Source of the DNA: Tubulanus polymorphus
Lineage: Eukaryota > Animalia > Nemertea
DNA: 64,000 nt
Assembly: GCF_964204645.1 (NCBI RefSeq)
Contig: NC_134025.1
Location: forward strand, 16,653,101 to 16,717,100
Direction: 5' to 3'
Shown: positions 9,454 to 51,694 of the stretch, piece after piece
Position numbering within the stretch: the stretch's first letter is position 1
Layout: each line of letters starts with the position of its first letter
Program-made: the position numbers and the translations under genes
The notes under the pieces: generated by a model
What the model saw: the letters and a program-made list of their open reading frames with translations, nothing else
Told to the model about the DNA's origin: nothing
Databases searched by the model: none

Positions 9454-11464
9454 CTGTTATCTAAATTTATGGCTGAGAATACATTATTAAAACATAAAGA
9501 ATTATGTGATAATAACGATTTTTGTAAATTAATAATGCCAACAAAAAAAGATTGTAAGCTGAAATTAACTAATCATAAATTTAAAAATATTGTTCCATTT
9601 GTAATTTATGGGGATTTTGAATCGTTGAATAAAGAATTAACTGATCAAGATAGAAAAGAAATATACAATGAAAAGCAATTTTTAAAATCAATATATAAAG
9701 GAAATGAATTAAATGAAGATATAATTCAAGATCCACCAATTATAAACACAATTAAAAAAGTTCATCAAAGAGCTGCCGCTTATGGAATTTACATAAAATC
9801 AAACTATCCTGAATTATATGAAAGTCAATATATTTCTCTTAGAGGTGAAGATGTAGTTAATGATTTTTGTAATAAAATAATTGAATTAGAAAGTGATTTT
9901 GCAAAATTATTAAACAAAAAAGAATACCATAAAAACTATTATTCATTAATTTGAAGAAATCTTTTTCAAAATCTGTTTTCGATATGGTTCTCTGTTGAGT
10001 ATTAAAATCTATATAGAGATTAAATTGTTGTTACTGTGAAAAACGTTTTTATTCATTTGATAAAAAGTTAGAGATCATGATCATTTAAATTCAAAATATC
10101 GTGGAGCTGCTCATGAACATTGTAATTTACAAGCTAAGAAAGTTAATTTCGTACCAATATTATTTCATAATTTATCAGGCTATGATACCCATCTATTTAT
10201 AAAACAATTATCGGGAAAATTGGGCGCAATTAATCAAGAAATAGAAGAATATAATGCTATGAATGGTGCAAATTTAAGAAAATATGATTTGAAACTATTA
10301 GCAAAGACATCTGAAAATTATATTTCATTACAATTTGGTTGCATTAGATTTTTAGATTCTTATAGATTTCTAGCAAGTTCATTAGATGATTTAGCAAAAA
10401 GTTTAGTTGATAATGATTTTATAATAACTCGACATTATTATCCAAATGAACAAGATTTTAAATTATTGAGATTTAAAGGTGCAATTCCTTATTCATTTTA
10501 TAAAACGCATGATGATTTTAATGTAACAGAATTATTAAAAGAACAATTTTATGATCAATTAAAAGAGGACTATGTGAAAGATGAAGTTTTTAATAGAACG
10601 TTAAATATTTTGAATCATTTTAAGACAGAAAATCATGGTGAATTAGTAGATTTGTACTTAAAATCAGATGTTATGATATTGGCTGAGATATTTGAAAAAT
10701 TTACAGAAGTTAATTTAAATCATTTTAATGTTGATCCTTGTTATTGCTACTCTAGTCCCGGTTTAATTTGGCAATGTGGTTTAAAATATACTAACGTAGA
10801 ATTAGATTTATTAAAAGAACCAGACATGGTTTTATTATTTGAAAAATCAATTAGAGGTGGAATTAGTGGTGTTATGGGAGATGATGAATACAAATTATTA
10901 TATATTGACGCCAATAATTTATATGGTTGGGCAATGATGCAACCTCAACCATACAAAAATTTTATATTAACAGAAGTTGAAAATGATGATAAAACTAATT
11001 GGGAAAGCGCAATTATGAGTTTAGAAGATGAAGCACCAATTGGTTATTTCTTTGTTGTTGATTGAGAATATCCTGATAACATATAGTTTAAAACAAGAAA
11101 CTTACCATATTGCCCAGAACATTTAACCGTAGATGATAGTTATTTAAGTGAATACCAGAAGAAAATAAAACCGAAAGATCAAGTTTTTACAGAGAAATTG
11201 ATATTAACACAAAATAATAAATATAACTATATTGTTCATTATAGAATTTTAAAATTTTATCTAAAACAGGGAATGAAATTAAAGAAAGTACATAGATATA
11301 TTGAATTTAATCAATCGAAGTGGTTAGAAAAATATATAGATTTTAATACTCAACAGAGAACCATATCGAAAACAGATTTTGAAAAAGATTTCTTCAAATT
11401 AATGAATAATAGTTTTTATGGTAAAACATGTGAAAATATTAGAAATAGAAATGATATTGAATTA
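9454..11464 (+). pseudogene. Element A pPolB, 5'-truncated first part
   Basis: VPFVIYGDFES, RDHDHLNSKYRGAAHEHCNL, FHNLSGYD, FLDSYRFL, YLKSDV, SIRGGIS, YIDANNLYGWAM and KLMNNSFYGK. Several stops and frameshifts; cut by element B after NRNDIEL. Confidence 0.95.
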
Positions 11465-12194
11465 AGTAGTATACAAAATAGCGGTTCTGGCGCAGCCCGA
11501 CCCTGGTTCTGGCGCAGCCCATCCTTACCCCGGTATACCGTGTACCCTCGCATAGCTTTATCTCCACCGAAATACCCTAAGAAGACAACCCCTGTGGACC
11601 GCGGTTCTGGCGCAGCCCATCCTTACCCCGGTATACCGTGTACCCTCTCAAAGCTTTATCTCCACCTAAATACCCTAAGAAGACAACCCCTGTGGACCGC
11701 GGTTCTGGCGCAGCCGATCCTTACCCCGGTATACCGAGTACCCTCTCAAAGCTTTTTCTCCACCTAAATACCCTAAGAAAACAACCCCTGTGGACCGCGG
11801 TTCTGGCGCAGCCCATCCTTACCCCGGTATACCGTGTACCCCCTCAAAGCTTTTTCCCCACCTAAATACCCTAAGAAGAAAACCCCTGTGGACCATGGAA
11901 AACACGCCAAGGGGCCGGCAAACCCCCTCCGGCCCCTATAAACCAACAGCTATAATGCACATACGACAAAGTGTTATTTACATAGATATTTACAGTATAT
12001 ACAAGTATGTGAAAGGCTCTGACCTGGAATTCACCTCTTAAGCTGACGCTATTAGCGGTGCGCTGCGACCTGATTGTCACTGATTGCGAAATAGCCTAGA
12101 AAGTTCTATGCTGACGCAGAAGCCGGCAAACAACCAAGACATCGGCAGGCAACCAGAGCCATGTCCCTTGGACATGGCCAGGCCCGGCCAACAC
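11465..12194. repeat. Left TIR of element B, with four 98-bp tandem units (~11503-11893)
   Basis: Reverse complement of 37823-38642. The unit GCGGTTCTGGCGCAGCCCATCC...CCCTGTGGACC recurs at 11601, 11699 and 11797. Confidence 0.95.
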
Positions 12195-12275: not shown

Positions 12276-15200
12276 ATGGACAGTGCGGTAAAAAGTCTGA
12301 CCGATTTACTTCGAGACGGGCAGATTACAGTCGCAACACAAGCCGATGCCATCAACCAGTTGACCCGCAGACCGACGCCACCTCCGAGAAAGCCAAAACC
12401 CGCCCCCAGAAAACCCAAGTACAAGGTAGAAAACATTATACCGGACGATGATCCGATTTGGGATGAGATTCTACCGGAGCCAGAACCCGCGTTTCATAGG
12501 GCCCCGTTTGCTATCCAAAATTATCTGAGGGCCTGGGTTTTGAGGCCAGTCACCGATGTGACTGATCCGTCGATATTCTTGCGCGAACAGCAGAACAATG
12601 TAAGGGAGAAGTTAGTCGAGGAGATCATTGACCTTAAGGGTGTAAAATTCTCCATTGCTCTGCGGGTTTCGTTGAGGAAGGAGAAGAACGACGGCACCTA
12701 TGCGCACGTCGAGCCGCCCTTCTGGTCGAAGCAATACGTTCTATCGAAGGCGGCTAACATAAATGAGGAGTTGGGTAAAGCTGAAGCTAGGGTTTTACAA
12801 AGTATTGAGAATTATATGAGAGAAGGTTCCGGATGGGCTGTAGAGAGGGGAGTCGAACTATTCCTGAATATCGCCAGATATCAACCGTTGAGAGGCGGTT
12901 CTTATATCGACCTCCCCGTCACAGTCAAGAGAAGACACGCCGTCGTAAATGTCAAAAATAGAGATGATCACTGCCTTAAGTGGTCAATACTGGCCTCGAA
13001 ATACCCCGTAGAGAGAGACCCCCAGAGGCCATCGAAATATGCGAATCACTGGGACCAGCTTGACTTTACAGGCATCGATTCACCGACACCATTGAGTCAG
13101 ATTCCTATGGTCGAACGACAAAACGGACTGGCAATCAACGTGTTCGGGTATGACAAAGGCGTGTACCCATTGCATATCAGCGATGGCCCGGCCCCCATTC
13201 CTAGAATTAACTTGCTACTCGTAGAGAGCGGTGAGAAAAAGCATTACACATGGATCAAAGACCTCAATCGCCTGTTGTTCACCAAGAGTAATGCAGCTAT
13301 CAATGTGAACCCTGACCCCCCCTAGTTCATCCATCGCCAGGATTTCGACGTGAAAATTGGTGGATCCTGAACGAAGACTTTTTTAGTAATTAACGAATCT
13401 CTGGCGAACCCAAAAGAAATGGGTGTCGTATCTCTATCGAATGCGTGACGATTATGTATTCATTGAGCATCGAATGTCTGGCGGATTCCAATCTAAACCT
13501 ACTTCGAAAGTCTGACGAAAAGCGGTTTGATATGCGGTTTGAACATACGGGACATATAGTCAGTTTACCTTCCGTTGTTACGCTCCCGATCGGATATGTC
13601 GCTTCACTAAAACGTCAGGTCGCCAGAGCCTCTATATCGTGGGAAATTCTCACAGAAGTTGTCACATTTAATTGTTAGCTTAGCATTATTTATCACTTCA
13701 ATCTTCATTAAAATAAACAGCATAAGTTCTATTTCAACTCTTTGGAGCTATTATATTACATGGTTCCCCTAAAGCCCAAACCAGCCACTTGACTGGTATT
13801 TCTTTTACAATGAAGTTTGATCTTGGAAGAAACATGACGTTGCTTCATCTATCATGTCTGCAGCATGTCACTGCTGTTTCAAAAGGCTTATAAAATGAGT
13901 TAAGTTTTGTTAAGATTTTATAGTTTTAATAAAAGAAATGAAATTAATAAACATGCTACATTGTGTCGAATACCTGGCGTATTGTATTTCTTAAGGAAAT
14001 CTGTCTAGTGGAAAGCTGTCGAAGCCCTGACGAGGTTATTCTATAAAAGTGACGAAAACCTGACTAATGTCATCTATGGTAATAGTGATAATCTGTCGAA
14101 ACCTGAGCGGAAAGATTTATGGTATGTGTCGAATTGGAGTCGAATGTCTGAACTAGGGGGGGGGGTCAGGGTTCACATTGATAGCTGCATAAGTTTGAAG
14201 GGAGGAAACACTTCTGCAAGCGGTGCCTTCATTGTTTCACCAGAGAAGATCTCCTGGAGAGGCACAGGTCAGATTGTCGAGGAGTCAACGGACGTCCAAT
14301 GCGTACCAGTATGCCCTCGGAGGAGGACAAAGTGTTGCGGTTCACCAATCATTACAAGCAGCTCAAGATTCCGTTCGTCATCTACGCCGACTTCGAAGCC
14401 ATTACAACCAAATTCGAGAGCCCCGGAAGGAACCCGAACCAGAAAGGTAGCGAAAAGACGCTGCGGCGGTATTTCTTCAGCACCTCCAAGGGGAAGAGGA
14501 GAAAATCAAGGGCGTGCTCGCCCATCCCGCGCCTATGGTAACTACTCGGGAGGAGCAAACGTCATTCGAGGAAGCGGAAAATTGCTACGTATGCGACAAA
14601 CTACTCTATGAGGATCGAGTCAGGGATCACGATCACATAACGGGTGACTACCGGGGCCCGGCCCACAACGAGTGCAACCTCAAGTTGCGACTGTCCGCGA
14701 AATACACGCCTATACCGGTCGTGTTTCACAACCTCCGCGGTTACGACTCTCATCTCATCATGCAGACAATCGGTCGGACTGAAGGAAAGATAACGTGCAT
14801 CCCGAATAACATGGATAAGTACATCTCATTCAGTCTCGGTAATTTGCGGTTCATCGATTCTGTGCAGTTCTTGCTGGCCCCACTTGACAGACTGGTTGCG
14901 TCAGCCGCTAAGGAGAGCTTTACGCTGACAGCCGCGGCCGAACCTGTACCCGAAAAACTAGAGCTGTTACTGAGAAAGGGCGTATACCCATACGAGTACA
15001 TGGACAGTTGGGAGAAATTCCAGGATACCCAGCTTCCGTCAAAAGAAGCCTTCTACAGCAAGCTATCAGAGGCGGGAATCAGCGATCAAGACTACGCCCA
15101 CGCGCAAAAGGTATGGGCCACGTTTCAGTGCCGTACTATGGGTGACTACCACGACCTCTATCTGAGGACCGATACGGTTCTTCTCGCCGATGTATTCGAG

Positions 15201-16541
15201 AATTTCAGGTCCACTTGCGTGAAGCAGTACGGCCTAGATCCTGCACAGTATTACACCAGCCCGGGTCTTAGCTGGGACGCTCTACTTAAGAAAACAGAGG
15301 TTAAACTAGAGCTCTTATTGGACTACGACCAGTTCTTATTCATCGAAAAGGGTCTGCGAGGTGGCATTTCCATGGTCAGCAAACGCCACTGCAGGGCCAA
15401 CAATCCTTTGGTTCCCGGTCACGATCCAAAGAAGCCGACGACACACATAATGTACCTTGACGCGAATAACTTATATGGCTAGGCTATGTCGCAACACCTG
15501 CCTACGGGCGGATTCCTGGAATACCCCAGGGGGCTGCACGACTCGCACAACGAGTACCCACTGGCACCGGAAAGGCTAAAGGTTCAAGAAGCATTGGATG
15601 TCGCAGTACCAGCAAGATCTGTTAGGAAGACTGGGGGGTTCGACCGAAACGGAAAAACTGGTGCCTAATCACCGCAACAAGGAGAGATACGTCGTTCATT
15701 ACAGGAACCTTAAGTTGTACCTGGAGCTAGGACTGAAGCTCACAAAGATTCATCGCGCCCTCGAATTCGACCAATCGCCGTGGATGGAGCCGTATATAAG
15801 ACTGAACACAAAACTAAGAAAACTAGCAACCAGCGACTTCGGGAAGGACCTGTACAAACTGATGAATAACTCCGTATTCGGCAAGACCATGGAAAATCTT
15901 AGACGCAGGGTAGACGTGAAGCTTGTCAGATCAAACGAGGAAGACAGGTTGAGGAAGTTGATAGCCAAGCCGAACTTCGCCAGGTCCAAGGTGTTTGACG
16001 ACGATCTTGCCGCGCTGCACATGTACAAGACTAATCTGTACCTGAATAGGCCCATTTACGTAGGGATATCCATGCTCGATCTCAGCAAGCTGCTGATGTA
16101 CGACTTCTACTATAACCACATGCAACAGGTATACGGCGATCGTACTCGATTGATGTACACTGACACCGACAGTCTCCTGCTAGAGATTGAGACGGAAGAC
16201 ATCTACGAAGACATGGAATCGAACAACGACCTTTACGATACTAGCGATTACCCGGGAAATCACCCGCTGCATAGCAACGTCAACAAGAAGGTTCTAGGTA
16301 AGATGAAAGACGAGTGCGCGAGGAATGTCTGTTCCAAAAGAAGGTCTTCCAGCACGGAATGAATATGCTGAGAAGCGAGGGTCACAAAATGTACGGCCTG
16401 CGTATGACAAAGCAGAGTCTCAGTCCCTTCGACAGTAAGAGGTGGATCGCCGACGATGGTATCGCTACGCTCGCTTACGGCCACAAAAATGCCAGGACTC
16501 CGTTGGACGAGTACGTTGAGGAATTGCTCAACGAACTTTAG
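12276..16541 (+). pseudogene. Element B protein-primed DNA polymerase B
   Basis: EGSGW, YQPLRGGSYI, PFVIYADFEA, CYVC..RDHDHITGDYRGPAHNECNL, FHNLRGYD, KGVYPYEY, YLDANNLYG, KLMNNSVFGK, YTDTDS, SLSPFDSKRW. Broken by a MITE, a TAG at 15480, frameshifts and deletions. Confidence 0.96.
13292..14189. mobile_element. 898-bp non-autonomous TIR element with a TAA TSD (PIF/Harbinger-like target)
   Basis: TIR TGCAGCTATCAATGTGAACCCTGACCCCCCCTAGTTCA at both ends; TAA at 13289-13291 and 14190-14192. Removal restores FTKSKFEGRKHFCKRCLHCF. Superfamily is inferred from the TSD only. Confidence 0.9.
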
Positions 16542-17564
16542 ATCGCAGGCTGTACCTGCTATTCGAGGGCATTACCGCTTCGGGTGACAAACCCTCCTTG
16601 TGCTTGATAGTCTGCTTTATCTTGTGCTCTTTGTCGGCTACGGACACAGCGTCTACCGTCGTCTTCTCTTCAGCTGGAGGTATCACTAGTTGCAGATCGT
16701 CCAACCTAGCTGATTCTCCATTATCGAGGACCCCTTTTAAGCCTTCCACAGACGCGAGGGAGTGCACTGTTTGGCCCCATATCTGTTTGTAACCCTTTTT
16801 GAACACGGGTCTTTTCAGCTTTTTCCTTACACTGTCGCCTGGCTTGAACGGGCTCTCAGGGGGTTCGGATTTGCCGATATTTTCGAACAGTAACCTTTCT
16901 TCATTTCGGGATTCTCCGGCCTATTCGGGAGTCATATCTGAAATACCCCCGTGAGGTGTAGCGTTGTAGCCATCTACGTAATCTTGCAAACGATCGTACC
17001 ACACGACGGTTTCTCTTTGGTGAAATCCTTGAAAATGATCTCCTTTATCGTCCTAGACAGCCTGTCGATGATGCCAAGCGCTTTGTGGTCGCCAACTTCA
17101 ACAGTCCTGTGTTCAATTCCCCGCGTCCTAAACATTTCTTGCATCGGTTTGTTTAGAAACTCCGATCCGGAATCGGTGACTAACAGAGTCACTTTCTCCT
17201 CGCCGAGACCTTCCATGATTGCCTCGAATCCCTCTTTGACGGCTTCCTTGCTCTTCTTTTTCAACGGCTGCGCGTAGGCCTTTCGAGTGAATACGTCAAC
17301 GCAAAGTAGAATCCACTTGTATCCCTTGTTTCGACGACCGTAGTTCGACAGATCCAGTAGGTCCGCGAACCAAAGGCAGTTTTCGCAGTTGGCTACGATA
17401 TGTCCTTGAATTTGTCTGCGCGTCTTTTTATGTAGCTGATAAGTCTTCTTCGCCGATACGAACTTGTCAACTTCTGCGAAGGTAACACCGGGATCACGCT
17501 TTTTCATAATTCTGTACAGTTTCAGGGCCGACGGGTAGCCGTGTTTCGTCCAAACCTCTTCCAT
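16528..17564 (-). pseudogene. Element B retroviral-like (RVE) integrase, frameshifted
   Basis: WFADLLDL, WILLCVDVFTRKAYA, LVTDSGSEF, IIDRLSRTIK, and FKKGYKQIW in a downstream frame. Confidence 0.93.
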
Positions 17565-29328: not shown

Positions 29329-30085
29329 GAATAGGGCCAAGAATTGTGTCTGAGCGTCAAACGCGGTACTGGTGTCACCGACGATGACGTTTCGAGTTTG
29401 TGCTTGGGCTCCTAGGATGCAGTAAACGTACACCCGAATGGAGTCGTTCAGGCGTTCCACCCCGGTTTTGGTCAGACCGTGACCTTCGGGTGCCACGAAG
29501 TTAACCCACCCTTTTTCGTTCAGGTACTGTTTCGTGTACAGCGTGCCCAGATCGCCTGCTTCTCCGATCCAATACCTAAAGTCAGTGTTTTGGGGGACAT
29601 TGAATTCGCCGCAGATACGTTCAAACGCTAGTTCGTTCACGGGATTATCGAGCATGTTAAAAACCGTTGTTGGCTGGTACGGGACATTTCATCTCCGATA
29701 GGATCTTCCTCGTTTGAAAATAAACGTGAAATCGGAACAAACTGGTTACCAACGGAGAGGAGTTGTTCATGTGGTTCTTCCAGGAGACCCCGCAACCGCT
29801 TGTGGCGCACTAAATGGCAAAGTTGAGTTGGTTCTGCCAGAACTTCATGTTTGACGTGCGCCTCCAAACTCGAAACTCGCCGAGATTGTAAAAGCGGATC
29901 GGGTAAATCCTGAATATGTCCGGTACAGTTGTCTGAAAGTGATCGTCAACCCTACTCGACAATTGTATCCTCAACGACGTCAAAGCTTTGTGAATGTCAC
30001 CTCTGTAGTCGAGCTTGTCTTTGAATGGTACCACCGGTACGGAGTAACGCGACGATGGATCGTACACAAATTCTGGTGGAAACAT
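29329..30085 (-). pseudogene. N-terminal half of the conserved WQNQLNFA-family Polinton protein
   Basis: MFPPEFVY...KFWQNQLNFAI...GLTKTGVERLNDSIRVYVYCILGAQAQTR...FEDA, homologous to A's 45968-47089; frameshifted. Confidence 0.88.
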
Positions 30086-30113
30086 TTCCTGCGGTATATA
30101 TAGTAGAGACAAA

Positions 30114-30482
30114 ATGCATCCTGTGAGTTACTTGAGAGTATGGTATGCTACCGGGCAGCCTATTCAAGACAACGATCTCAGCAGAAAACTGAAAGGGAAT
30201 GTGGTCGCAGGCATTGAACGATACAGTTTGCAGTGCATGGCTCTGTCCGTCTTCGCCTGGGAGGAAATAAATCGGGAAGCGATTTGGAAGGAGATGTTCA
30301 CCGACAACCGCGTAAACTGGGGTCGAATAGTCACGTTAATCGCATTCGCTAGCTATCTGGCTAAGCATTTCTTCCGAGTCACCGATTACGTCGAAGAGAT
30401 CGCGTTTAGAACGAGGGAGTTCTTTAACGACAATCTCGCATACTGGGTTATCGAGCAAGGTAGCTGGTCAGAATTACCATGA
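30114..30482 (+). CDS. Bcl-2 family protein (vBcl-2-like), 122 aa
   Basis: BH1 EMFTDNRVNWGRIVTLIAFA and BH2 LAYWVIEQGSWSEL; no C-terminal membrane anchor. Confidence 0.88.
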   Translation: MHPVSYLRVWYATGQPIQDNDLSRKLKGNVVAGIERYSLQCMALSVFAWEEINREAIWKEMFTDNRVNWGRIVTLIAFASYLAKHFFRVTDYVEEIAFRTREFFNDNLAYWVIEQGSWSELP

Positions 30483-31723
30483 GACGGAAAAGCGAGTTTT
30501 TTCTGGCTTACAGTATAGCTACTATATCTGCATACGGTAAACACTTGAACTCTTCGAGACAAATTCGAACACCGCTAGGTGTCAAGGCGGATCGAGACCA
30601 CGAGGTTATTACCCACAACCCTTCGTCCGTGTCACCGGGGGAAACCCTTTACGTAAGGATACCAAAACTGCAGGTGAACACGCTGCTGGTACCCGGAAGC
30701 TTGAAACTCACGTTCGACCTCAGCAAAGAGGGTCCGGCTAATAACTTCTTCGTGAACAACATTTCGAGGAACCTTATGGCCAGAATCGTTGACAAACTGG
30801 GTGGTGAAATCTTATCGGATTTGAACTACAGCTTCGTCTTCCGGACCTACAAAGATCTGTGGCTTACGGAGAAAAGGCGAAGTAACATGATTCTGGAAGG
30901 AATCGGCAACGAGAACTTGAGGAAACTCAGATCGGATGCAGAAAGCGCCTTGAAAACCAACACCAAGGAAACGATGATCAAGTCGGTGTTTAAGAACAGG
31001 TACGCCATACCCATCGATTTCGAACTGTACACGGACCACGGTCCTTTCTATCCGTTCGCAATCAACGAGGACTGTGTTAGGGAGATCACTTTCAACGAAA
31101 TCAAGTTCACTGTAAACGGGAGTGCGGAGGCATGGGGATACTCCGTGAAAAATATAGCCCTCGAATACGACACCGTGCATTCGGCGGAGCTCGCCAGACA
31201 GATCGAAGCCGACCTGTCCGCCGGGGTAAGCTTCTTGTACGACTACGTCACGTTCTTCAGGAGTCAATCCACGGGAACCTCGACAATTCTGAACGTAAAC
31301 GTTAACGTTAACAACGGGCAGTACGATTCCGAAGCCACCTCGTTTCAGAACCCAAACATCAAGAACGTCGATGTCACGATCGAAGGAATATCTCACAAAG
31401 TGTACAAGCAAGGACTGAAACCTTACCAACAATGGGAAGAGTGCAGAAGATTTCTGATGCCAGAATCGGCCAAAGAAACCGACGAGTCGCACATAGACGA
31501 GTTCTCGTTCTTCGTCGACGACAAATACGCATTGTGGATCGATCTCAGAAGCACAGACGACAACTCGCTTCACGGATCTGGTCTAAGGTTGGTCAACACA
31601 AAGGACGGCGTTCAGTTAGCCATCACCCGTACCAGCACAACGGAGTACACGATGTTCATTTACGTCGTAGCCGACACCCAAGTAAACATCCAGAACAATC
31701 AATTAAAGGCGATTCTGTTCTAA
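30479..31723 (+). CDS. Element B probable double jelly-roll major capsid protein
   Basis: 414 aa, beta-rich, directly upstream of the ATPase. ITHNPSS...ETLYVRIP, YKDLWLT, LEYDTV and WIDLRSTDDNSLHGSG are shared with A's 48811-49922. The capsid call rests on size, context and family resemblance. Confidence 0.75.
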   Translation: MRRKSEFFLAYSIATISAYGKHLNSSRQIRTPLGVKADRDHEVITHNPSSVSPGETLYVRIPKLQVNTLLVPGSLKLTFDLSKEGPANNFFVNNISRNLMARIVDKLGGEILSDLNYSFVFRTYKDLWLTEKRRSNMILEGIGNENLRKLRSDAESALKTNTKETMIKSVFKNRYAIPIDFELYTDHGPFYPFAINEDCVREITFNEIKFTVNGSAEAWGYSVKNIALEYDTVHSAELARQIEADLSAGVSFLYDYVTFFRSQSTGTSTILNVNVNVNNGQYDSEATSFQNPNIKNVDVTIEGISHKVYKQGLKPYQQWEECRRFLMPESAKETDESHIDEFSFFVDDKYALWIDLRSTDDNSLHGSGLRLVNTKDGVQLAITRTSTTEYTMFIYVVADTQVNIQNNQLKAILF

Positions 31724-31735
31724 TGTATAGCGGAG

Positions 31736-32347
31736 ATGGATAGGCTTTGGTTACAGCCCCCGTTCAACATGATTGTGTCGGGGCAAACGAACTGCGGAAA
31801 AACGCACTACGTCCTCGACCTCCTACAATCTGTCTATCGCGGCAAATTCCACAATATAGTGATTTTCTGCCCGACTTTCCTCGAGAACACCACCTACGAT
31901 AGATCGTTTGTGATGAAGGACCCCAATATCTTCGTCATGAACCCGGATTCGGTGTTAAACGACCTAGACGGTTTGCTTTCCACGTGCACCAAAGTATACG
32001 GCGATCCTCATTGTCAAACTCTGTTTCTTATAGACGACTGCGCCAACTTGAGGGATACTAAAACCAAGTCGTCCGAATTGACGAAACTCGCGTTCTCGGG
32101 CCGTCATCTGAATATCTCAGTGTGGGTGCTCACTCAAAAATAGAACGCCGTTGTGAAATTCCGAGAAAACCTGAGAATGTTAGTCCTGTACCACCAAAAA
32201 GACGAGGATGGTTTAAAGGATGCTCTGCTTGAAAACAACATCGTCCCGAAAACCAAAAGGGAACGTGTGATCGCAGATCTCTCTGCTAGGAATCGGGCCC
32301 GTCTCGTCATGCGTCTCGAGTATCCATTCGCCTACGGGGTATTCTAA
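31736..32347 (+). pseudogene. Element B A32/FtsK-like packaging ATPase
   Basis: Walker A GQTNCGKT, Walker B LFLIDD, FSGRH..ISVWVLTQ; premature TAG at 32141. Confidence 0.92.
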
Positions 32348-32374
32348 ATTTTGGACGACTAACATATAGCGAAC

Positions 32375-32808
32375 ATGGACGAAGTCTACGACGAATTACT
32401 GAGTGACATTGGGTTGGATGTAGAATCACCCGAAGACGACGAGTCGGAAGGGCGCAGGCAGCTACTTGTCGGGCTTTCTCAGAGCGGGTTGCTCGCAAAA
32501 ATAGAGTACGAAAACCGTTACTCCGCCGCGGTTTCCGACAGTCTGATCAACAGCATGCTGTACGGTTATTCCTCTGCAAGTGGTTCAGACCTAACGTAAA
32601 CGCAGAACAGCTAAACAAGGAGTTGACTGAAAACTTTGTTATCACCGCCGAGACGAAAAACCAGCTCGGCCATCTGGGTAGGATTCTGAAGACTCCCATA
32701 CTCGCAATCGCGAACGTGGCGGTAATCACCGGGAAGAATATGGCAGATTCTGAGGAAAGTGACTTGTCCACTTGTCCGCAAGTAACTAGTCCACTTGCCG
32801 ATAAGTAA
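32375..32808 (+). pseudogene. Hypothetical protein, positional homolog of A's 51902-52440
   Basis: ATG preceded by the element's TATAG motif; fragments resemble A's post-ATPase gene. Confidence 0.5.
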
Positions 32809-32829
32809 CTTGTCCACTTTCCCGCAAGT
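32757..32829. repeat. Three 23-bp tandem units
   Basis: AAGT(G/A)ACT(T/A)GTCCACTT followed by 6 variable nt, three times. Confidence 0.8.
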
Positions 32830-32855
32830 CGTATTTTCCTCTCTTGCATATAGGG

Positions 32856-33086
32856 ATGAAACTTGAACAAGTGGAACAAGTGACGACTAACCCGCATAAA
32901 CAAAAGTCCCCTGGTCGAGTCGCATGGGGCAAAAAGCTTGCCGAAATTAGTAGGCAGCAGCGAGCCTCGAAGAAAACGGCTGCCCCGATTGTCGGTTCCG
33001 ACAACGAAAACAGAGCCCAGTCAAAACACCTGCAAGTGTGGATCGCGATAGGCGGGTTGTTAGTGGGCCTCGGAGCTCTATACTAG
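32856..33086 (+). CDS. Small basic membrane protein
   Basis: KSPGRVAWGKKLAE followed by the hydrophobic segment VWIAIGGLLVGLGALY. Confidence 0.6.
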   Translation: MKLEQVEQVTTNPHKQKSPGRVAWGKKLAEISRQQRASKKTAAPIVGSDNENRAQSKHLQVWIAIGGLLVGLGALY

Positions 33087-33204
33087 CAGAGAATGGCACT
33101 AAACCAAACCCAGAAACCCGAAGAAAGCACGGAACCAACACCCGAACCTTTGAATTGTCGCCTTGTGGAGATGACCTAAATTTTCTGGTGATAGATATTG
33201 CACG

Positions 33205-34227
33205 ATGGCAACGAATCCAGACTATGGAACAATCGCAAACCTGGATGACATGGAGCGGGCCCTGATGCGCCTGCAACTACGAAAACAAGACGACACCTGG
33301 TTCTTTCAGACGGAACTGAACGGTGATCCAGTTCGGGTGAAACTTACCGGTAGGAGCGGTCAAGTACTCGCCCATAGTACCATCTCGAAAGCGCAAAGGG
33401 GGCTCTGAGTTTTTCCATGCTCTGGGCCCTGACAGACCGGTGAGAATGGAACGAGACCCGTTGGAACCATCTATCGTGGATAGGTGGATAACGAGTTGAG
33501 TTTGCAGCAGGAAATAGAGGACATCGTCAATGACGACAGGGCTCCGCTGAGACCAGAAGACAGACGTGAACTCCGTGGGGTAGCTACTACTTTGGTTTCT
33601 ACGTCCAGCAAAATTAAGTCAGCAGCTGTAAACGTGGAATGGGCCCAACGAGAACTTGAAAAGGCTCAGAAAGAGCGCGATGACGCGGTGTCCGAACAAG
33701 ACATCCGATACTGGGACGACGAAGTAGAAAGGTTCGAAGCTCAGGAAGCAATATACAGGCGGACCTACGAGGCTCTACGGCAAGGGGAGACTTCTCAGAT
33801 CGAGACGTTGAAGAGGCTTCTGAAGAACGAAGATAATCGGCCCCTCGGCGTAAAGATCCGGGAGTTGTTCAAACAGGAAGGGATTACGTTGGTGAGCGTT
33901 GTCATGGCCGTCGTTATGACTATCACGAGCATCGGGCTCGCAATCGCGAACGGGCTCAAAAGCGTAGTAACACCCAGTCCGCCGGTTGGACCGGGAAAAG
34001 AACCCAAGTCCAGGATTCAAGAAGCTCTGAAACAGTTCGCGGCGTTTCTTATATATCTCGCAGGGAAAGGAGCTGCCGCGTTGCCGGGAATGATCGGAAC
34101 GGTGGTTAGCTTCCTGTTGAGGAAAGCCGGAGAAGTCGTCGGATTCGTAGCCGAGCACTTGGTGTTGTTGTTTATCGCTGCAGTCGGTCTGTCTTTCCAA
34201 GTCCTGAGCAGGAAATTTTCGCGTTAG
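33205..34227 (+). pseudogene. Coiled-coil protein with C-terminal membrane segments
   Basis: LFKQEGITLVSV...KGAAALPGMIGTVVSFLL..AG..V.F.AEH is homologous to A's KSSAALPGVIASIVGFILKSAGNILNFAAEH (48467-48733). Confidence 0.75.
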
Positions 34228-34238
34228 ATATAGGAAGG

Positions 34239-34952
34239 ATGTTAGTCATCCACTGTTACGGTAAGGATCCGACCGTGCGTCTAAAAACGCATCTCGACAC
34301 GGCTGGCTTCAAAACTGTGGCCTTAAGACGTGCTGTCATTCCTCTGGCTTACTTCAACGTTTCCGACAAACTGAACAACCACAGGTTTCGCTACATGACC
34401 GGAGAAAGGGTGGACGAGCACCAACAAAAAGTGTTCAACTTGATTATCAGGAATGGACTTAACACGGTTGAGAGTTTGAAAGACGAAATTCAGCGAGTCA
34501 TAACCCGAAACGGTCACAAACCGGGCTTCATTAACATAGCCTACGTGGAGGCGAGGGGGCGCATCGAACTCAACGTCAAAAAACCGTACCGAGTGCTCTT
34601 CAGCGGCTCCAACACCGATCTGTTGGGAGTCCCGGAAGGATATTACCCAAACGTCGAAGGTAAAGAGGTTAGCGTAAGGGGTACGAAAGAATGTAGGTTT
34701 ACCAGGCATACGGAATACCGCGTAACGTGCAATCTCGTTGACGAATCGAGAAACTTCCTAAACGGGGTGCCCTCGGACCTGATCGCCATTTTACATCCGA
34801 AAGCAGGTCAATACGGCGACTCATTCGAGTACGTTTACGGGTACCGATACCAATTAAGGAAGGCGGCTTCGCCGACGTAGTGGTCAAGGTTTTCAATCAG
34901 GACATGGATGAGATTCGATTCCAAGAACCGCTCCAAATTTTGCTCGCATTAG
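34239..34952 (+). pseudogene. Element B probable minor capsid (penton) protein
   Basis: YFNVS...G..T...L...YRVTCNLVD pattern shared with A's 43742-44500; frameshift near the 3' end. Confidence 0.65.
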
Positions 34953-34959
34953 AATAGAG

Positions 34960-35418
34960 ATGAACTTGTACAGGGGATAAGGGAAAACGCAGTCAACCAC
35001 AAAACCTGTGATAACCGTTTGGGCCGAGGAAAAAGGACCCCTCGGTGAGGGCTCTTACGAGTTCTCGTACGGTGATGGGTCGCGATCCCAGTACGCGGGC
35101 TACACGATGATGTGTCCGGGGAGAGTGCTAAAAATGGGCCTCTCCGGTGTTGACTTGACAACTAATACCACAGTAGTGTTGACCGTCAACAGGGTGGAAA
35201 AAGGAGAAATCACGAAAGAGGCTCGGCTTTTACAAGGCCCGATCAAACCCCAAGGTAAAGGAGTCTTCCAAGCCGCGGTCAAAACGTTCTCTCCACCAGT
35301 CGAATTGGCCGAGGGCGACGTCATCAATTTCAAGTCGTCGAGATCGCCCGCTACTCGAGCAATAGCTACGATAGCTTCACTCCTCATCGAGCTCGACATT
35401 TTCCCGCATAGTATATAG
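34960..35418 (+). CDS. Hypothetical beta-rich protein (possibly virion-associated), 5' end frameshifted
   Basis: ORF 35008-35418; the ATG at 34960 follows the element's upstream motif. Confidence 0.45.
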
Positions 35419-35419
35419 C

Positions 35420-36030
35420 ATGGATAGCGACACTAAACTTTACCCAATGGTTCTAACTGAGCCTAGTGCTCCAACCGAAGATGCGTCGAACTTCCGACTG
35501 CAAAGATATGCGAAGTCCAGAAAATTTTAGAGGCCGAGGGACAATCCCGCGCTGCGCTCTACAAGAAGTATAAAAGGGCGGTAAACACCATAGATGGATT
35601 TGACGCGGCTTTCTTGACGGCTAGCATAGCAGTCGCGGCTACGGGCGCCGCTGGCGTGCTTACAAACATAATCACGATCCCCGTTGCGACCGTCCTAGGC
35701 GTCTTAGGCGTGTCTGGGAAGATAGTCGGTCGGAAGCTTCTGATCAAGGCTAAAAAGCACGACGAAATTCGAGTGTTAGCCTCTTCCAAACTAAGCACCG
35801 TGTCAGATCTTGTATCGAGGGCAATAAGTGATGGAGTTGTTTCGGATGACGAGTTCAAGCTGATTCTAGCCGAACAGAGGAACTATCAGACTTTGAAGCA
35901 GGATATCAAGTCACAGGCTCGTAAAAAACACGGGTCGATCACGATCGACGAGGCTACAAAAAACGACCTCATCAGGCAGGGCAGGGAGCAGGCCAGGGCT
36001 TCCATCATCAAAAAGCTGGATGGAGGTTAA
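35420..36030 (+). pseudogene. Membrane protein with an N-terminal LYP...PSAP motif
   Basis: MDSDTKLYPMVLTEPSAPTE..NFRLQ, a frameshift, then RAALYKKYKRAVN, two hydrophobic helices and AISDGVVSDDEFKLIL. Confidence 0.7.
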
Positions 36031-36053
36031 CGTTAGAGTTTAACAGAGACACG

Positions 36054-36430
36054 TCACCCCCGGATTACTACTCCCGATTTAGCTAGTTGGTTCGCCATCT
36101 CATTCCCGTGTACCCCCTGGTGACCCCTGACGTATTTGAAAGATACGGAGACTCGGTTATTCAGACCATCCAGTTGTGTCCAGAGATCGCGGTTTTTGAC
36201 GTTTTTCCAGCACCTGGCTTTCCACGTCTTGATCCAATCAGTGATACCGTTTATAACGTATTTCGAATCGGTGAAAATTTTCAAGGAGTTAATACCAAGC
36301 TGGATGGCCTGATTGAGAGCCACGACGACCGCGGTTAATTCACCTGTGTTGTTGGTAGGTGGATAGACGACGCCACAGGTGTTTAAGGGACTGCACCGTT
36401 TCTCAGGCACGAGCCGTCTGTATACACTTC
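36054..36430 (-). pseudogene. RNase HI domain fused to the RT (frameshifted)
   Basis: EVYTDGSCLRNG at the end of the RT frame, then TNNTGELTA, IFTDSKY, WK.VKNRDLW and YVRGHQGVHGNEMANQLAK. Confidence 0.93.
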
Positions 36431-37750
36431 GGGTATATGCTCCGGATAGATGTCGAATACGTCGAACGCCTTAGAGCTACAGGGGAATTTTTCTGGGTCG
36501 GGGGTGGCGTGCGCGAATATTCCTAAGTAGTGGCCTTTTATGAACGCCTTCGAGTTTTTATGGTCGAGGGATTCGAAAGCGAGAACGAGATAATGGCTGT
36601 TTTCGAATTTCGAGATGGCCACTTCAACGATTTTTTCGTCGGGAGAAGTGATAAGGAAGTAGACCTTCAATGCATGAAGCCAGTGGTATACGGTGGACGG
36701 TACTTGAAAAGTGAGCAATCGACGGTGACCCCATTTATGTAGCGTGTTTACAAAGACACTGTCGATTAACTGCAAGCAATTATCAGACAGGTCGTTGATC
36801 ATGAGGTCATGGTAATCAGCTCTCAGCATATAGTCTATAGCGATATGAACCTTTGTCCCGCTTTGTATATCGGCGTTATCTATGTTTGCGAGTCGTTGCC
36901 TGAATTTTGTGAGGAGAATTTCACCCACCCCTTCCTGTCCATTGGGACTGAAAATTCGTTCGATTGAACCGAATGCATATTTAAGGTAAAATAAAGTCAC
37001 AGATGAGTCATTTTCAGTTTTTTCGGCTTCGATGATTTTAGTCTCTAATAATTCAGAATGTTCCAGTGTCCCGTGAAAACCCGACACGAATCCTTTTTGT
37101 ACGGCAGTGTCGATGAATCCGTTCCTAATGACGTGGCGTTCTATGCGTTTCGCCATTATCCGATGAAGGAGCCTCGAGATCACGCTTGTAACCGCAATCG
37201 GACGATAGTTAGCAGGATCCCGGCGGTCCCCTTTCTTGAATAGAAGCGTCACAATACTGGTGCACCACGCCGAGATTTTCGAAGGTGGCCTTCCCGTATC
37301 TAGTATGTCGTTGTAAAATCGCGCGAGTCGATGGGTGTGCTGACGGATATGTCCGTATTTGATCCTGTCTAGACCTTGAGCGGACTTTGGGTTGCTGCTC
37401 TTCAAGGCTTTTTCGATTTCAGCTGCGGTTATCGGTGACATATCGAACGGGAACACAACGTTCTGCTTACTAGAATACAGGTCCGTGAAGTATTCCTTCA
37501 CCCGTCGTTTAGTCGGAAATGCATCCTCCTGCGTTTGATTGCTCGGGGTAATAATCTGCTTGGCTGTTGTAAAGAACCGATTTGCCTTGTTGAGTTTGCT
37601 GATTTTTCTCACTAGGCCGAAGAATTCTTTCGAGCCGGCTTCATTCTTGAACAGCGTCTTCCGTAATTCACATTTCCGTTGTTTCAGGGTTTTCGGCAAC
37701 CCGGCTTTTATGTCACTCACCAGGTTTTGATAGATCAGATCTGTGTCCAT
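36383..37750 (-). pseudogene. Non-LTR (R2/RLE-clade-like) reverse transcriptase with the catalytic core deleted
   Basis: KSAQGLDRIKY, WCTSIVTLLFKKGD..DPANYRPIAV, QKGF..G..GTLEH and YLKYAFGSI, then a jump to a thumb-like region. QG, YADD and YLG motifs are absent. No APE or RLE endonuclease. Confidence 0.92.
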
Positions 37751-37822
37751 TTCTGACCACGCAGAATCTATATCCACCTTGGTGAGTGAACCAGGACTTT
37801 CACGAGACGCGCTTCACCTGGT

Positions 37823-38642
37823 GTGTTGGCCGGGCCTGGCCATGTCCAAGGGACATGGCTCTGGTTGCCTGCCGATGTCTCGGTTGTTTGCCGGCTTCTG
37901 CGTCAGCATAGAACTTTCTAGGCTATTTTGCAATCAGTGTCAAATCAGGTCGCAGCGCACCGCTAATAGCGTCAGCTTAGAGGTGAATTCCAGGTCAGAG
38001 CGTTTCACATACTTGTATATACTGTAAATATCTATGTAAATAATACTTTGTTGTAGGTGCATTATAGCGGTTGGTTTATAGGGGCCGGAGGGGGTTTGCC
38101 GGCGTGTTTTCCATGGTTCACAGGGGTTGTCTTCTTAGGGTATTTAGGTGGAGAAAAAGCTTTGAGGGGGTACACGGTATACCGGGGTAAGGATGGGCTG
38201 CGCCAGAACCGCGGTCCACAGGGGTTGTTTTCTTAGGGTATTTAGGTGGAGAAAAAGCTTTGAGAGGGTACACGGTATACCGGGGTAAGGATGGGCTGCG
38301 CCAGAACCGCGGTCCACAGGGGTTGTTTTCTTAGGGTATTTAGGTGGAGAAAAAGCTTTGAGAGGGTACACGGTATACCGGGGTAAGGATGGGCTGCGCC
38401 AGAACCGCGTTCCACAGGGGTTGTCTTCTTAGGGTATTTAGGTGGAGATAAAGCTTTGAGAGGGTACACGGTATACCGGGGTAAGGATAGGCTGCGCAAG
38501 AACCGCGGTCCACAGGGGTTGTCTTCTTAGGGTATTTAGGTGGAGATAAAGCTTTGAGAGGGTACACGGTATACCGGGGTAAGGATAGGCTGCGCCAGAA
38601 CCGGGGTCGGGCTGCGCCAGAACCGCTATTTTGTATACTACT
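37823..38642. repeat. Right TIR of element B, with five 98-bp tandem units (~38115-38602)
   Basis: Reverse complement of 11465-12194 with one extra unit. Confidence 0.95.
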
Positions 38643-38648
38643 GAATTA

Positions 38649-39757
38649 GTAAATAATTCTGAAAGATTAAGACATTTACAATCAAGTCCTAGACATTTAG
38701 GAAATTTAGAAGATTTGAAGATTATTTAGCTGCAGTTAAATTAAAAAGAACGTCAATGACATTTAATAAACCTATATTCATTGGTTCAACTGTTTTAGAA
38801 ATATCAAAATTATTAATGTATGATTTTTATTATAATGTTTTACAACCACTTTTTGGGGAAAAAAAATAGAAATCTTATATTTTGATTCTGTAACAGCTGA
38901 CACCCCAATATTATTAAAATGTAATGATAAAATATTGATAAGAAGAATTTCAGAAATAATTCCAAAACAAAATGAACGTTATATTTCATATGGTGAAAAA
39001 GAATTAATACAAATAAATGGATTAATGGATGTTTGGACAAGAAATGGATGGGAAAAATTAAAGAATATAATTAGACATAAAACAAATGAAAAGATTTATA
39101 GAGTTAGAACTAAATTAGGGTTTGTAGATGTTACAGAAGATCATAGTTTTATTAAACGAAATGGTGATGAAATAAAACAAACTGATATAAAAATTGGAGA
39201 TGAATTGTTACATAAAAGATTTTTCCAAAGAATGAATCATATGTCATTTGATGAAATAATTGATAATATTTATAATATAGAACCTGAAACATTAGAAGAA
39301 AAAGAATATTTTATCAAAGGATTTTTTATGGGAGATGGTTCAGCAGGTGTGTATAATTATGTTAATCGCACTCAATATTGCTGGAATATATGCAATCAAG
39401 ATTTGAAATTATTAGAAAGAATAAAGAAATACTGTGAAGTTTAAAGATGAATTAGGGGGTGATGAAATGATTGAATTTGTTGGGATAAGAAGTAAAATGC
39501 ATAGTTATAGAACAAAAGATCACGAAGCTAAAAAGTTAAAAGGAATAACAAAGCATGTGGTTGATAAACATATAGAATTTCAAGATTATATAAAGTGTTT
39601 ATATAACTCAATTGTAATGAAACATAAAATGAATTGTTTAAGATCAGAAGATAACGAGATGTACATTAATGAAGTTGAAAAAACTAGTTTGAATCCATTC
39701 GATGATAAAAGATATATTTTGGGTGATGGAATAAAAACATTGCCTGATGGTTATTAA
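38649..39757 (+). pseudogene. Element A pPolB, second part (with intein and a deletion)
   Basis: FNKPIFIGSTVLEISKLLMYDFYY...ILYFD, then the intein, then KFKDELGG..EFVGIRSKMHSY...KKLKGI...SLNPFDDKRYI. Confidence 0.93.
38887..39436 (+). other. Intein (N-terminal splicing region plus first LAGLIDADG motif), C-half deleted
   Basis: In frame after LYFD: block A SVTADTPI, VWTRNGW..L..IIRHKT..KIYRV.T..G.VDVTEDHS (block B TxxH), IKIGDELLH, and the endonuclease motif YFIKGFFMGDGS. Confidence 0.9.
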
Positions 39758-43741: not shown

Positions 43742-44501
43742 ATGGTTGAATTAAAAGAATATAGAATATTTGTTGATTCAAGAAGACTTACTCATTATAA
43801 ATCACATAATTTACTAGTACAATTAGATCGAGAAATTAAGAATTGTGTAGATTTAAAATTAGTAAATGTAAGTTTATGCAACACATTTTACAATGTATCG
43901 AATAAAACTGTTGAACATAGAGCCTTTTTAATTTTTAATAAAAATAAAAATGAATGGGCCTATATATATTTAAAACTGGGTTATATAATTTAGATACATT
44001 GGCACAAGAAATTAATAGAAAAGCCTGGCACAAGTCGGGTAATAATTCCGGGTTTAATATTAGATTTTTAAAAAGTGAGAGTTCTAACAAAATAAAGATA
44101 AGGTTGGCTGATATTGAAAAACATAAATTTATGGTAAAAAAACCTATAGCTAAACTGTTAGGAAATCCTCCAGATAAATTTTTTTTACAAATATTGAAGC
44201 TACACCAAACTTAATATCTTTTACACACTTTTATATTTATTGCAATTTAATCGATCCTACAAATACATTTGAAGCAACTAAACATATAACTTGTAATTCT
44301 GGTTTATTAAACATTTTACCATTGAAGAATGTTAAAGAATTTGGAACTCAAATAAATTATAATTTAACAGAATGTGATTTCAAACCATGCATTCCTCAAT
44401 TTAATAATTTTAGATTAGAAATTAGAAATCATAATGGATATTTAATTGATTTTAATAACTTTCCTGTGATATATGAATTAGTTATAAGATGTAGAGAGTA
44501 A
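43742..44501 (+). pseudogene. Element A probable minor capsid (penton) protein
   Basis: YRIFVDSR, NTFYNVS, GLYNLDTL, FYIYCNLID and LIDFNNFP across frameshifts. Confidence 0.7.
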
Positions 44502-44517
44502 TTTTTTCACTATATAA

Positions 44518-45951
44518 ATGAATATAACTGTTGGACCGAGTATATGTTTTGGGTTTGATTTTAAACATGGTAAAGAAATGAGAATTAAACTAAATGATGT
44601 AATTACTGATATTAAACGTAAATCATTCAAAAGAAAATTATAATATAGAAAAAGTAATTGATTTAATTAAAACGCCTTTAGAATATTATGAATTAAATCA
44701 AGATGGAATTATCGATGATATTAAAGATATATTATCTAAAATATATGATAATCATAAAAGTAGTAATGAAATAAATGTTGAAATAATTATAACTAAGATA
44801 AATAAATATTTTGAAGATAGTAATTTTGATAAATTAATGAGTGATAATAAGTGGATAATAACTGGATTATATAATGAAGCATTATTATCAGTTGGAACTG
44901 TTGATTATTCAATGGTATCAAAAAAGGTATTTAAAATGGGAAGGGTTAATGTTGATAGATTTGATATAAATGATATCTTAAAATAAACGTTAGCGGTTAC
45001 TTTATCTAATTTAACTATTGATTATTTAGAAAAACAAAAATATATTCCTCCTGTATAAATGTCTAATTTTTTTACTAAATAAATGGCATCTGCAATTATA
45101 ACTATTATAGGATCGGCAATTGTTAACGCTTTAGCATTTACAGGTGGTGGGTATTTGTTTAAGCATATTGATAAAAATGGTTCATTATCAGAACAAAAAA
45201 GACATAACTTAGCATTAGAGAAATACAATAGAGCAGCAGAAGAACATAGAGAAAAGAGGCAAAACTATATGGATTACATCAATAAATAATTTTATGATCA
45301 GAAGATTTCACATCGAGATTTTCAATCAGTTGATGATGCAATGAGTTTATATAACGCGGTAACCAATAAAGAAAAATTACATCTATACAAACCTAAATTA
45401 TCAGATTATTATACCCCAAGGAAAGAACAACAGAAATATGAAATAATTTGGATTTTAGGTGGAACAGTTATTGTTATATTTGTAGCATATAAATTTACTA
45501 ATTAGTAATTTCTTTTCTAAATAAATGGATGATAAAGTTGATAATATTGATATTATTCCTCATGATATAAATAAAACCAAATTAAAAACATATTTAGAAA
45601 AACAAATATTAGAATTTGAAAATGATTTAAAAATAAAATGATTTTAAAAGTAAAATTATATATTATTTTATTATCAGTGGTTCAGTTACAATTAGTTCCG
45701 TAATAACATTTCTAGCAATATTCAGTCCATTAACACCTTTAGCTATATCAATTGGTGTGCTAGGATTATCATCAAGTGTATTAACTGGTATAAGTTCAAA
45801 ATTAAATATAAAAAGTAATAAAGAAAAAATTAAAACTAATATAAAAGAAATTAATAAATTAAAAAATACACTAGATTATATAATAAGTTTAAATGGTATT
45901 ATAACAGTTGAAGAACAAGTTAAATTATTAAAAGAATTAAAAAATTATTAA
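44518..45951 (+). pseudogene. Cluster of small hypothetical or membrane genes (starts at 44518, 45083, 45525)
   Basis: Each start follows TAAATG. Includes MASAIITIIGSAIVNALAFTGGGYLF...EQKRHNLALEKY and a decayed homolog of B's 35420 gene. Confidence 0.6.
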
Positions 45952-45967
45952 TTTTTTTATTATATAA

Positions 45968-47343
45968 ATGGTAGATAGTTTTCCGAAAGCTTTCCAATAT
46001 AATAAATCAATTAAATATAATATTCCTGCAATAGATTTTAATAAAGATATTTCATATAGAAATGAAGTTTTAAATTCATTAATTAATTTAGATATTTATG
46101 TTACTGAAACTAATAATTTTAATGTTAAGGTGGAAAATATATTCAATATTTACGTAATAAATTTTACAAATTTAAATGAGGCAAAACAATGGTTATTAAA
46201 ATCTAATATGAAATATTGGCAGAACCAATTAAATTTTGCTGTTTTTTGTGCAACAACAGGGTCTGGTATAAGTTGGAATGATCATTTGAATAAACCAAGT
46301 TTACCATTAATATTATCACTTTTTAGATTTCATACATATTTTCAAATAAAATTAATATTAGATGAATTAGAATGTCCTTTACCAGGTTCAAAATACTTTA
46401 ATAAACTAAATAATAATATTAATTTTTCTAAGTTTTATAAAATATGTAATGAATTTAATATTAATTCAAATAATGATTTTAGAGCAAAAACTGGAACAAT
46501 GGGTGGATTAGGAATATTATATACTAAAGAATTTGGAAAAATAATGACAAATTCAGATATAAGAACACTAGATTGGAATGAATTACCAAAATATTATAAT
46601 AATATACAACAATAAAATAATAATGGTAGGATTAATTTCATTTTAGAAAATAGTGAAGGTTTTACTAACTCAGGTATACAAAGAATGAATCAATCTATTA
46701 GAACTTGTTTGATATGTATTTTAGGTGCGCAAGTTGAAACAAGATCACCAATCGTTGGAAATGATAACACTTCATTTGATACACAGAAACAATTCAAAGT
46801 TTTATTTGAAGATTCAATTCATAATGATAAAAATAGATCGATTTCAGAAAATATAGTAAGATATCAAAATTATTTAGATAAATCACATATTAGATTAAAT
46901 TATTGTATAGGCCCTAATCTATTAATTATTTCTAATGATTTAATATTAAAGATGGGAAATATAATTGGTTATAATAATCTAATTAAGACTGCAACAATAA
47001 ATAATTCATTTGGATTGAGTGATATAAATAAAAAGATTATTACTGCTCCAAAATTAATGGAAGGTGAAAATAGAAGGTGTAAAAATTAAAAAACATATTC
47101 AATCAACAGAAACTAAAACTAAGAATATTAAATTAAATGATGATTCTAAAATAAAAGATTACAATACTACAGAAAATGGTGCCGTACGGCACCCACACGG
47201 TGATATAAAAACTGATAATATTCAACATGACATATTTAAAACTGATTATGATAATAAATCCCATGAAAATGCTAAATTAGCTATTACTTGTATAGGAATT
47301 GTAATAGGAGGAATATTATATTTTAAATTTTTTTATTATATAA
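45968..47343 (+). pseudogene. Element A WQNQLNFA-family conserved protein
   Basis: KYWQNQLNFAVFCATTGSGISW, FRFHTYFQ, CILGAQVETR, IGPNL; C-terminal hydrophobic helix. Confidence 0.85.
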
Positions 47344-51693: not shown

Positions 51694-51694
51694 A

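Follow-up and report, generated by a model that had tools for sequence, protein, structure and literature searches.

In a Polinton of the nemertean Tubulanus polymorphus, here called B, a gene for a reverse transcriptase (RT) followed by an RNase H lies just inside the right terminal inverted repeat (TIR). Does this gene belong to the element, or is it a stray LINE that happened to land there? We analysed the window, a 64,000-nucleotide stretch of genomic DNA that contains B, and we put the probability at about 0.8 that RT–RNase H is an accessory gene resident in a Polinton lineage and maintained there by selection. The original prediction had already preferred a resident gene to a stray LINE, and that preference is now backed by sequencing depth, by the lack of an empty-site joint, by an intact orthologue and by a conserved neighbour gene.

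B spans positions 11465–38642 of the window and has the genes and ends of a Polinton/Maverick, namely a protein-primed DNA polymerase (pPolB), an rve integrase, an A32-type packaging ATPase, TIRs ending in (AGT)2//(ACT)2 and a 6-bp target site duplication (TSD; Table 1). Once two nested blocks (~10.8 kb and ~0.9 kb) are taken out, its length is estimated at ~16 kb. Ends, TSD and size fit the Mavericks described in passages of PMC8097293; the same genes, as well as accessory genes beside the TIRs and Bcl-2 cargo, recur in the Polintons/Mavericks (adintoviruses) treated in excerpts of PMC8097293, PMC8502044 and PMC11131425. B differs from other Polintons in its RT–RNase H gene. In a Pfam scan that took in 40 window frames, no adenain-type protease was matched in the scanned frames of B, the short decayed ones being only partly covered. 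The polymerase domain scored above the cut-off (PF03175, E 3.7e-6), and the polymerase frame (14451–15479) also has, ahead of this PolB domain, a zinc-binding stretch like that of endonuclease VII (PF02945, E 2.4e-5). The pPolB gene is disrupted by a 0.9-kb insertion (13301–14179), stops and frameshifts. Its N-terminal part, which presumably belongs to the polymerase to judge by its motifs, also matches another polymerase-like N-terminal stretch at window positions 1–582. The gene that we take to encode the major capsid protein, which in Polintons is of the double jelly-roll type, is 36% identical to a gene of an outer Polinton (E 1.7e-68); it had no Pfam match, and its single-sequence fold reached only pLDDT 32.

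Table 1 Coordinates of the features of Polinton B in the window
Feature	Position	Strand	Details
TSD, left copy	11459..11464	+	GAATTA, 6 bp
Left TIR	11465..12194		Four 98-bp units; AGTAGT at start
Protein-primed DNA polymerase (pPolB) gene	12276..16541	+	PF03175 at 14451–15479
rve integrase gene, two frames	16528..17564	-	PF00665, E 4.5e-12
Intronless Bcl-2 family gene, captured host-type	30114..30482	+	PF00452, E 7.4e-14
Probable major capsid protein gene	30479..31723	+	Similarity to outer-Polinton gene
A32-type packaging ATPase gene	31736..32347	+	PF04665, E 8.3e-14; premature stop 32141–32143
Convergent neighbour gene, hydrophobic middle part	35421..36030	+	Frameshifted near start; homologue in L002
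Remainder of RNase H1-like domain, other frame	36054..36389	-	After frameshift near 36,390; stop at 36054
RT frame	36383..37750	-	N-terminal extension, RT motifs 0–3, thumb, linker, first RNase H motif (YTDGS)
GATATAG	37768..37774	-	TATAG gene-start motif of B before RT ATG
Right TIR	37823..38642		Five 98-bp units; ACTACT at end
TSD, right copy	38643..38648	+	GAATTA, 6 bp

The RT frame encodes 455 aa. RT and RNase H had been described as running directly into each other; both domains are present, but in place of a single open frame a frameshift near 36,390 splits them. The RNase H domain matched PF00075 at E 8.4e-27 and gave its highest scores with eukaryotic RNase H1, and the RT domain matched PF00078 at E 3.8e-4, under the Pfam cut-off because the RT is truncated. 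The assignment to an R2/RLE-like RT stands for the RLE type and falls for R2 itself: R2 is the nearest solved structure, and the nearest sequences are ~1000-aa single-ORF RLE elements. The supposed absence of an endonuclease agrees with Pfam, which detected neither an APE nor an RLE domain in either frame. The C-terminal CCHC knuckle and PD-(D/E)XK endonuclease of an RLE retrotransposon are missing, and no N-terminal APE domain is present in the window gene or in its intact relative P0003, which start at an equivalent residue.

The layout of the gene proved as described when it was measured. Its ATG lies 73 bp inside the TIR edge at 37823, and a gap of 23 bp (36031–36053) separates its other end from the convergent neighbour. 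RT and pPolB are placed as mirror images, starting 73 bp and 82 bp, respectively, inside their own TIRs and both pointing inward. Repeats common to the two borders of the gene do not exceed 5 nt, and T runs at the 3′ end reach 3 at most; as judged from these borders and from raw reads, a 3′ tail, a TSD and dispersed free-standing copies are all absent. The clean TSDs ascribed to the major nested elements hold for B and for one nested element (19264–21646, 9 bp), the two that were checked. This copy is dead, as had been recognized: ~150 codons (RT motifs 4–7) are missing relative to P0003, the RT frame has an internal deletion at the joint 36956/36958, the first catalytic Asp position is Tyr and the last RNase H Asp position is Asn.

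An ordinary LINE insertion had been expected to reveal itself through sister copies of B with an empty site or through many free-standing copies of the RT. We looked for both in raw DNA reads labelled with the same species but taken from a different sample and study (X5); the stretch is contained in four of ten listed runs, all four from one study. Over 35400–37960 four joints were found, all of them local. None skips the RT gene and none connects the neighbour gene to the TIR, at a sensitivity that empty sites below ~5% of reads could escape. Depth was 63.3 in the RT bins (54.5–71.4, 6 bins) and 66.5 in the B genes at 30520–35991 (53.9–91.2, 18 bins), a ratio of 0.95 that is relative only and gives no absolute copy number. 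Because the RT is as deeply covered as the other B genes, there is no room for many free-standing near copies. The TIR bin was covered at 147.1, 2.2 times the depth of the B genes. Among the 14 of 43 loose-end rows listed, no row falls at the gene's 3′ border; at the other side of the gene, 52 X5 reads run on at 37823/37824 into other sequence, and the letters following the loose end at 37823 are the interior of the left TIR.

An assembly artefact was ruled out, as reads and contigs cross both gene borders; contigs of a further data set (X3) span the neighbour gene to the RNase H (35423–36329) and the RT to the TIR (36435–37852). A single locus behind the flat depth was also ruled out: several distinct indel variants, each in 8–30% of X5 reads, imply more than one diploid locus. 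The main breaks of the window copy are absent from most of its sisters. One X3 contig carries 448 letters at the deletion joint, where 32 and 26 X5 reads run off at 36956/36958, and at the two codons with a changed catalytic residue the window reading is not shared by 49 of 61 and 53 of 67 X5 reads. Some sisters carry breaks of their own, such as the one seen in five reads joining 37689 to 37828. A 760-base record, the same in X6 and in X7 (the latter presumably RNA), holds a diverged match to RT motif 3 at 36958–37015 and is possibly a relative of B's RT under the same species label.

We then turned to protein relatives. Among 645 matches to the broken frame of the window, P0003 was outstanding (E 2e-58, the runner-up reaching 8e-12). 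It is an intact protein of 733 aa that has the same start and end residues as the window gene, is 40%, 32% and 46% identical to it in three blocks and keeps DLKNAFGS, YADD and the complete RNase H catalytic set; that set, D-E-D-H-D, is also present in P0124. P0003 and P0124 were top-ranked among 1.84 billion representatives, and only these two combine an RT with PF00075 among the 120 proteins listed for P0003. A profile search with an eight-member alignment gave no further protein with both domains among 120 listed. Four other long proteins with RT and RNase H (P0319, P0329, P0351 and P0371) scored at most 122 bits against P0003 and were left off the tree. An AlphaFold model of P0003 (pLDDT 85, pTM 0.72, 50-row alignment) best matched R2 proteins, with a C-terminal domain that matched human RNase H1, and the N-terminal extension region of the RT is alignable with R2. 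Human RNase H1 was likewise the best PDB match of the RNase H (E 2e-28), and its best stand-alone matches include 3 clusters of 10 with the name Ribonuclease H1. Judged by sequence, the RNase H domain resembles cellular RNase H1.

The RT tree was built over 418 columns from 32 rows picked by hand from 167 candidates (8 endonuclease-less, 18 of the RLE-bearing group and 6 more distant). The eight endonuclease-less RTs form one clade with support of 100/99, in which the window gene is sister to P0124 (99/93). This clade sits among RLE proteins of ~1000–1300 aa; proteins of the P0128 type are presumably HERO-like, going by their C-terminal motifs. CCHC knuckle and nuclease are missing from P0003, P0124–P0127, P0244, P0246 and the window gene, and no endonuclease motif occurs in any of the eight members. 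RNase H is missing in five of them: P0125–P0127 and P0246 end where RNase H begins in the alignment, with the palm motif intact, and P0244 ends earlier than that column. In P0126, an RT-only member, the N-terminal extension is interrupted by two C2H2-like zinc-finger repeats. Scans of viral contigs yielded one locus, L001, with an RT that is 26% identical.

Flanking DNA is known for one of the seven relatives, through L002, the 2116-base contig of P0124 and the sole locus from a motif scan of metagenome contigs. Its RT–RNase H is ~50% identical to the window gene, and its frame too is broken, in the N-terminal half of the RT. Downstream of the RNase H, convergent with it and across a 65-bp gap, lies a homologue of the last gene of B (35% over 112 aa, E 4.3e-13), and the intergenic sequence between the two genes differs from that of B. 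In the three RT/RNase H blocks compared between window and L002, pN is 0.32–0.35 and pS 0.67–0.88; synonymous sites are saturated or nearly so. A shared neighbour at such saturation means that the pairing of RT–RNase H with this gene is old. The neighbour gene has a pN of 0.48, and RT–RNase H is therefore the slower-changing of the two, despite the later decay of the window copy. Since L002 (2.1 kb) contains no TIR and no core gene, its assignment to a Polinton depends on the neighbour gene (an Atlas match of 0.83–0.84 is no more than a lead).

Gene-start motif and base composition had both been cited as being B-like. A TATAG is indeed present at the RT, but it lies 17 nt before the ATG, as against 1–10 nt at seven other B starts. 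Counting both strands, 29.8 kb of B contain 23 such motifs, and the chance of one falling within 22 nt is ~0.017; the motif mostly precedes the structural genes and the integrase, and the pPolB start is without it. Composition is similar overall, but in GC3 the gene stands at the low edge of B (RT frame 0.53, RNase H frame 0.59, nine B frames 0.56–0.66). CpG observed/expected is 1.23 for RT–RNase H, 1.05–1.20 for B and 0.66–0.72 for the nested block and the outer element.

Non-LTR elements with an RNase H have it, as the B gene does, in one protein with the RT, and the APE clades among them keep an endonuclease. In sequence and fold, N-terminal extension and thumb included, B's RT is like that of the RLE-clade non-LTR elements (R2 structures 9dou, 8gh6 and 9nl2; P0128 and P0387). 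Unlike them, the gene has an RNase H where the CCHC knuckle and PD-(D/E)XK nuclease stood, has neither tail nor UTR and keeps the same neighbour gene in two lineages. Passages of PMC4640811 place RNase H in the I group, plant L1, Proto1, Dualen and oomycete Utopia, the last being RLE-only with an archaeal-type RNase H upstream of the RT. The B gene is unlike Utopia in that its RNase H lies downstream of the RT and is RNase H1-like with the His, and in that the nuclease is gone. A downstream RNase H that replaces the nuclease is absent from the account of non-LTR clades in those passages.

The mere presence of an RT in a dsDNA virus has precedents. RT genes are on record in MsEPV (MSV061), lymphocystis disease virus-China, Bodo saltans virus and mimiviruses, and a 'MegaRT' of large DNA viruses is treated in part of PMC11071296. 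Like B's RT, these are of retroelement type, often short, and located in a dsDNA virus genome; unlike it, they belong to other virus groups and share just 16–21% identity, over alignments of 335–562 columns that suggest RT-only matches. For Polintons, the terms 'reverse transcriptase' and 'RNase' have 0 occurrences in PMC8502044 and PMC11131425, and no RT is named for them in passages of PMC6431247. RTs in PLVs are read as nested retrotransposons in passages of PMC12220804 and 10.64898/2026.07.28.741278. We found no description of a resident Polinton RT in the literature searched, of which some sources were available in part and to which supplements, Repbase and subscription journals did not belong.

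What might such a gene do for a Polinton? R2-type RTs start synthesis at a nick that their own nuclease has cut, RNase H1 strips RNA out of hybrids, and a Polinton passes through a linear stage in which it has ends, and encodes a pPolB that can complete second strands. With no nuclease, B's RT would be unable to make its own primer and would need an existing 3′ end. Telomerase is an endonuclease-less RT that acts at DNA ends. EN-minus Penelope-like elements likewise encode endonuclease-less RTs acting at DNA ends (a passage of PMC8557442). B's RT resembles both in having no nuclease and in requiring an existing 3′ end, and by analogy may work as they do; it differs from them in being of another RT class and in sitting, together with an RNase H, inside a TIR-bounded element, whereas they act at chromosome ends.

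We suggest that the gene goes back to a single-ORF RLE retrotransposon that found its way into an ancestral Polinton, where the CCHC knuckle and nuclease would have been lost and a cellular-type RNase H1 gained in their place, in either order. During the free linear stage of the element, the RT would prime on genome ends or breaks with the element's own transcripts as template, RNase H would clear the RNA from the hybrid, and pPolB would finish the second strand. Because RNase H1 takes RNA off hybrids, synthesis would yield either free cDNA or a DNA strand that has been repaired. Our best guess at the role, if a tentative one, is RNA-templated repair or end maintenance, with priming where the free linear genome ends or is broken; we favour it, ahead of counter-defence, gene capture, a selfish element, an RNA intermediate and a plain insertion, because the nuclease has been lost, RNase H clears RNA, and linear ends and pPolB are available. 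Two findings count against end maintenance. The TATAG motif sits before integrase and structural genes and not before pPolB, and no structured template RNA was found on the TIR side, where a 350-nt region folded no more stably than its shuffles (z -0.95).

A resident gene might instead serve to destroy RNA. It would copy host defence or competitor RNA into hybrids for RNase H to degrade, or would block related retrotransposons. We consider such a counter-defence role unlikely. The full RNase H1-type catalytic set is kept in P0003 and P0124, the TATAG start motif is common to the integrase and structural-module genes, and B holds another host-directed gene, Bcl-2, all of which would suit it. 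However, no target or guide RNA was found in the TIR-side fold or by Rfam, whose single match over 35900–38700 was at chance level, and four clade members stop just before RNase H with the palm motif intact, which indicates that DNA synthesis alone can be retained.

Less likely again is a resident gene for gene capture, in which cDNA of host mRNA would recombine into the element. This would account for the intronless Bcl-2 gene of B and for an RNase H domain that itself looks taken from a cellular RNase H1, and a gene-duplication role has been speculated for the RTs of large DNA viruses (in part of PMC11071296). Yet events so rare would be a weak source of steady purifying selection, and Bcl2/IAP genes are recorded in adintoviruses by a survey that makes no mention of any RT (PMC8502044).

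A still-selfish, nuclease-less retroelement, specialised on Polintons and kept intact by its own movement, we rate slightly lower. Such an element could explain why the RT retains an N-terminal extension region that aligns with R2; retrotransposons do nest in virophages and PLVs (passages of PMC12220804 and 10.64898/2026.07.28.741278), and the genomic context is known for just one of seven relatives. It fits poorly with a gene that has no tail, UTR or TSD, leaves no empty site and has the same 3′ neighbour in a lineage ~50% diverged, next to different intergenic sequence.

A cycle in which part or all of the genome passes through RNA, and in which RT, RNase H and rve integrase act as in LTR retroelements, is very unlikely. 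The three do occur together in one element, and the two polymerase genes are placed as mirror images beside the TIRs; against this, the element keeps pPolB and has genes on both strands, and related Polintons work without an RT (passages of PMC8097293). Last comes an ordinary truncated LINE insertion, private to the window copy or recent, which could appeal to the death of the window copy, to an RT-frame GC3 slightly under all nine measured B frames and to the nested RT elements common in PLVs (in the passages cited above on retrotransposons in PLVs), but which is already largely refuted by the flat depth without an empty-site joint, by the intact orthologue P0003 with the same borders, by the neighbour gene conserved in L002 and by an endonuclease motif in 0 of 8 clade members.

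As a resident gene, the RT behaves as the element's own, kept across deep divergence with an RNase H replacing the nuclease, and points to an RNA-to-DNA step that would be useful to a mid-size DNA virus. It is possible, though we hold this with the same reserve as the repair role, that a Polinton lineage domesticated an RT–RNase H1 and came to use reverse transcription routinely in its own DNA metabolism, whether to maintain ends, to repair DNA or to copy part of the genome from RNA. If true, one element would combine DNA polymerase, RT, RNase H and integrase and would function as a cross between a retroelement and a protein-primed DNA virus. P0003, to go by its sequence, would be a naturally occurring, intact enzyme of 733 aa that carries out R2-type reverse transcription independently of DNA nicking, and would allow a direct assay of priming and template choice.

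Several further observations concern B and its surroundings. A perfect 9-bp hairpin lies at the inner edge of both TIRs (37839–37859 and its left mirror). An X3 contig of 2847 bases matches only the inner TIR (37824–37888, 7 differences) before continuing into other sequence, and probably represents a second family with a related TIR. X5 depth is 13–17 at 29608–30215 compared with ~66 elsewhere in the right half of B; this stretch covers the 5′ end of the Bcl-2 gene and the start of a gene that we take to be PZ-like, and is either present in some copies only or more diverged. RecQ-like helicase fragments (DEAD, Helicase_C and RecQ zinc) occur at 27569–29019, in a block nested in B.

The outer Polinton (44497–56640) shares with B homologues of the capsid candidate, ATPase, integrase, polymerase and two other genes; the part of it present in the window contains no homologue of the RT or of the last gene of B. 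Its own gene-start motif, TAAATAAATG/TATATAAATG, differs from that of B. A weak match to an intein-splicing domain (PF14890, E 3.7e-4, below the cut-off) is located at 39025–39441 in this AT-rich outer element, immediately beyond the site at which its polymerase region is interrupted by B.
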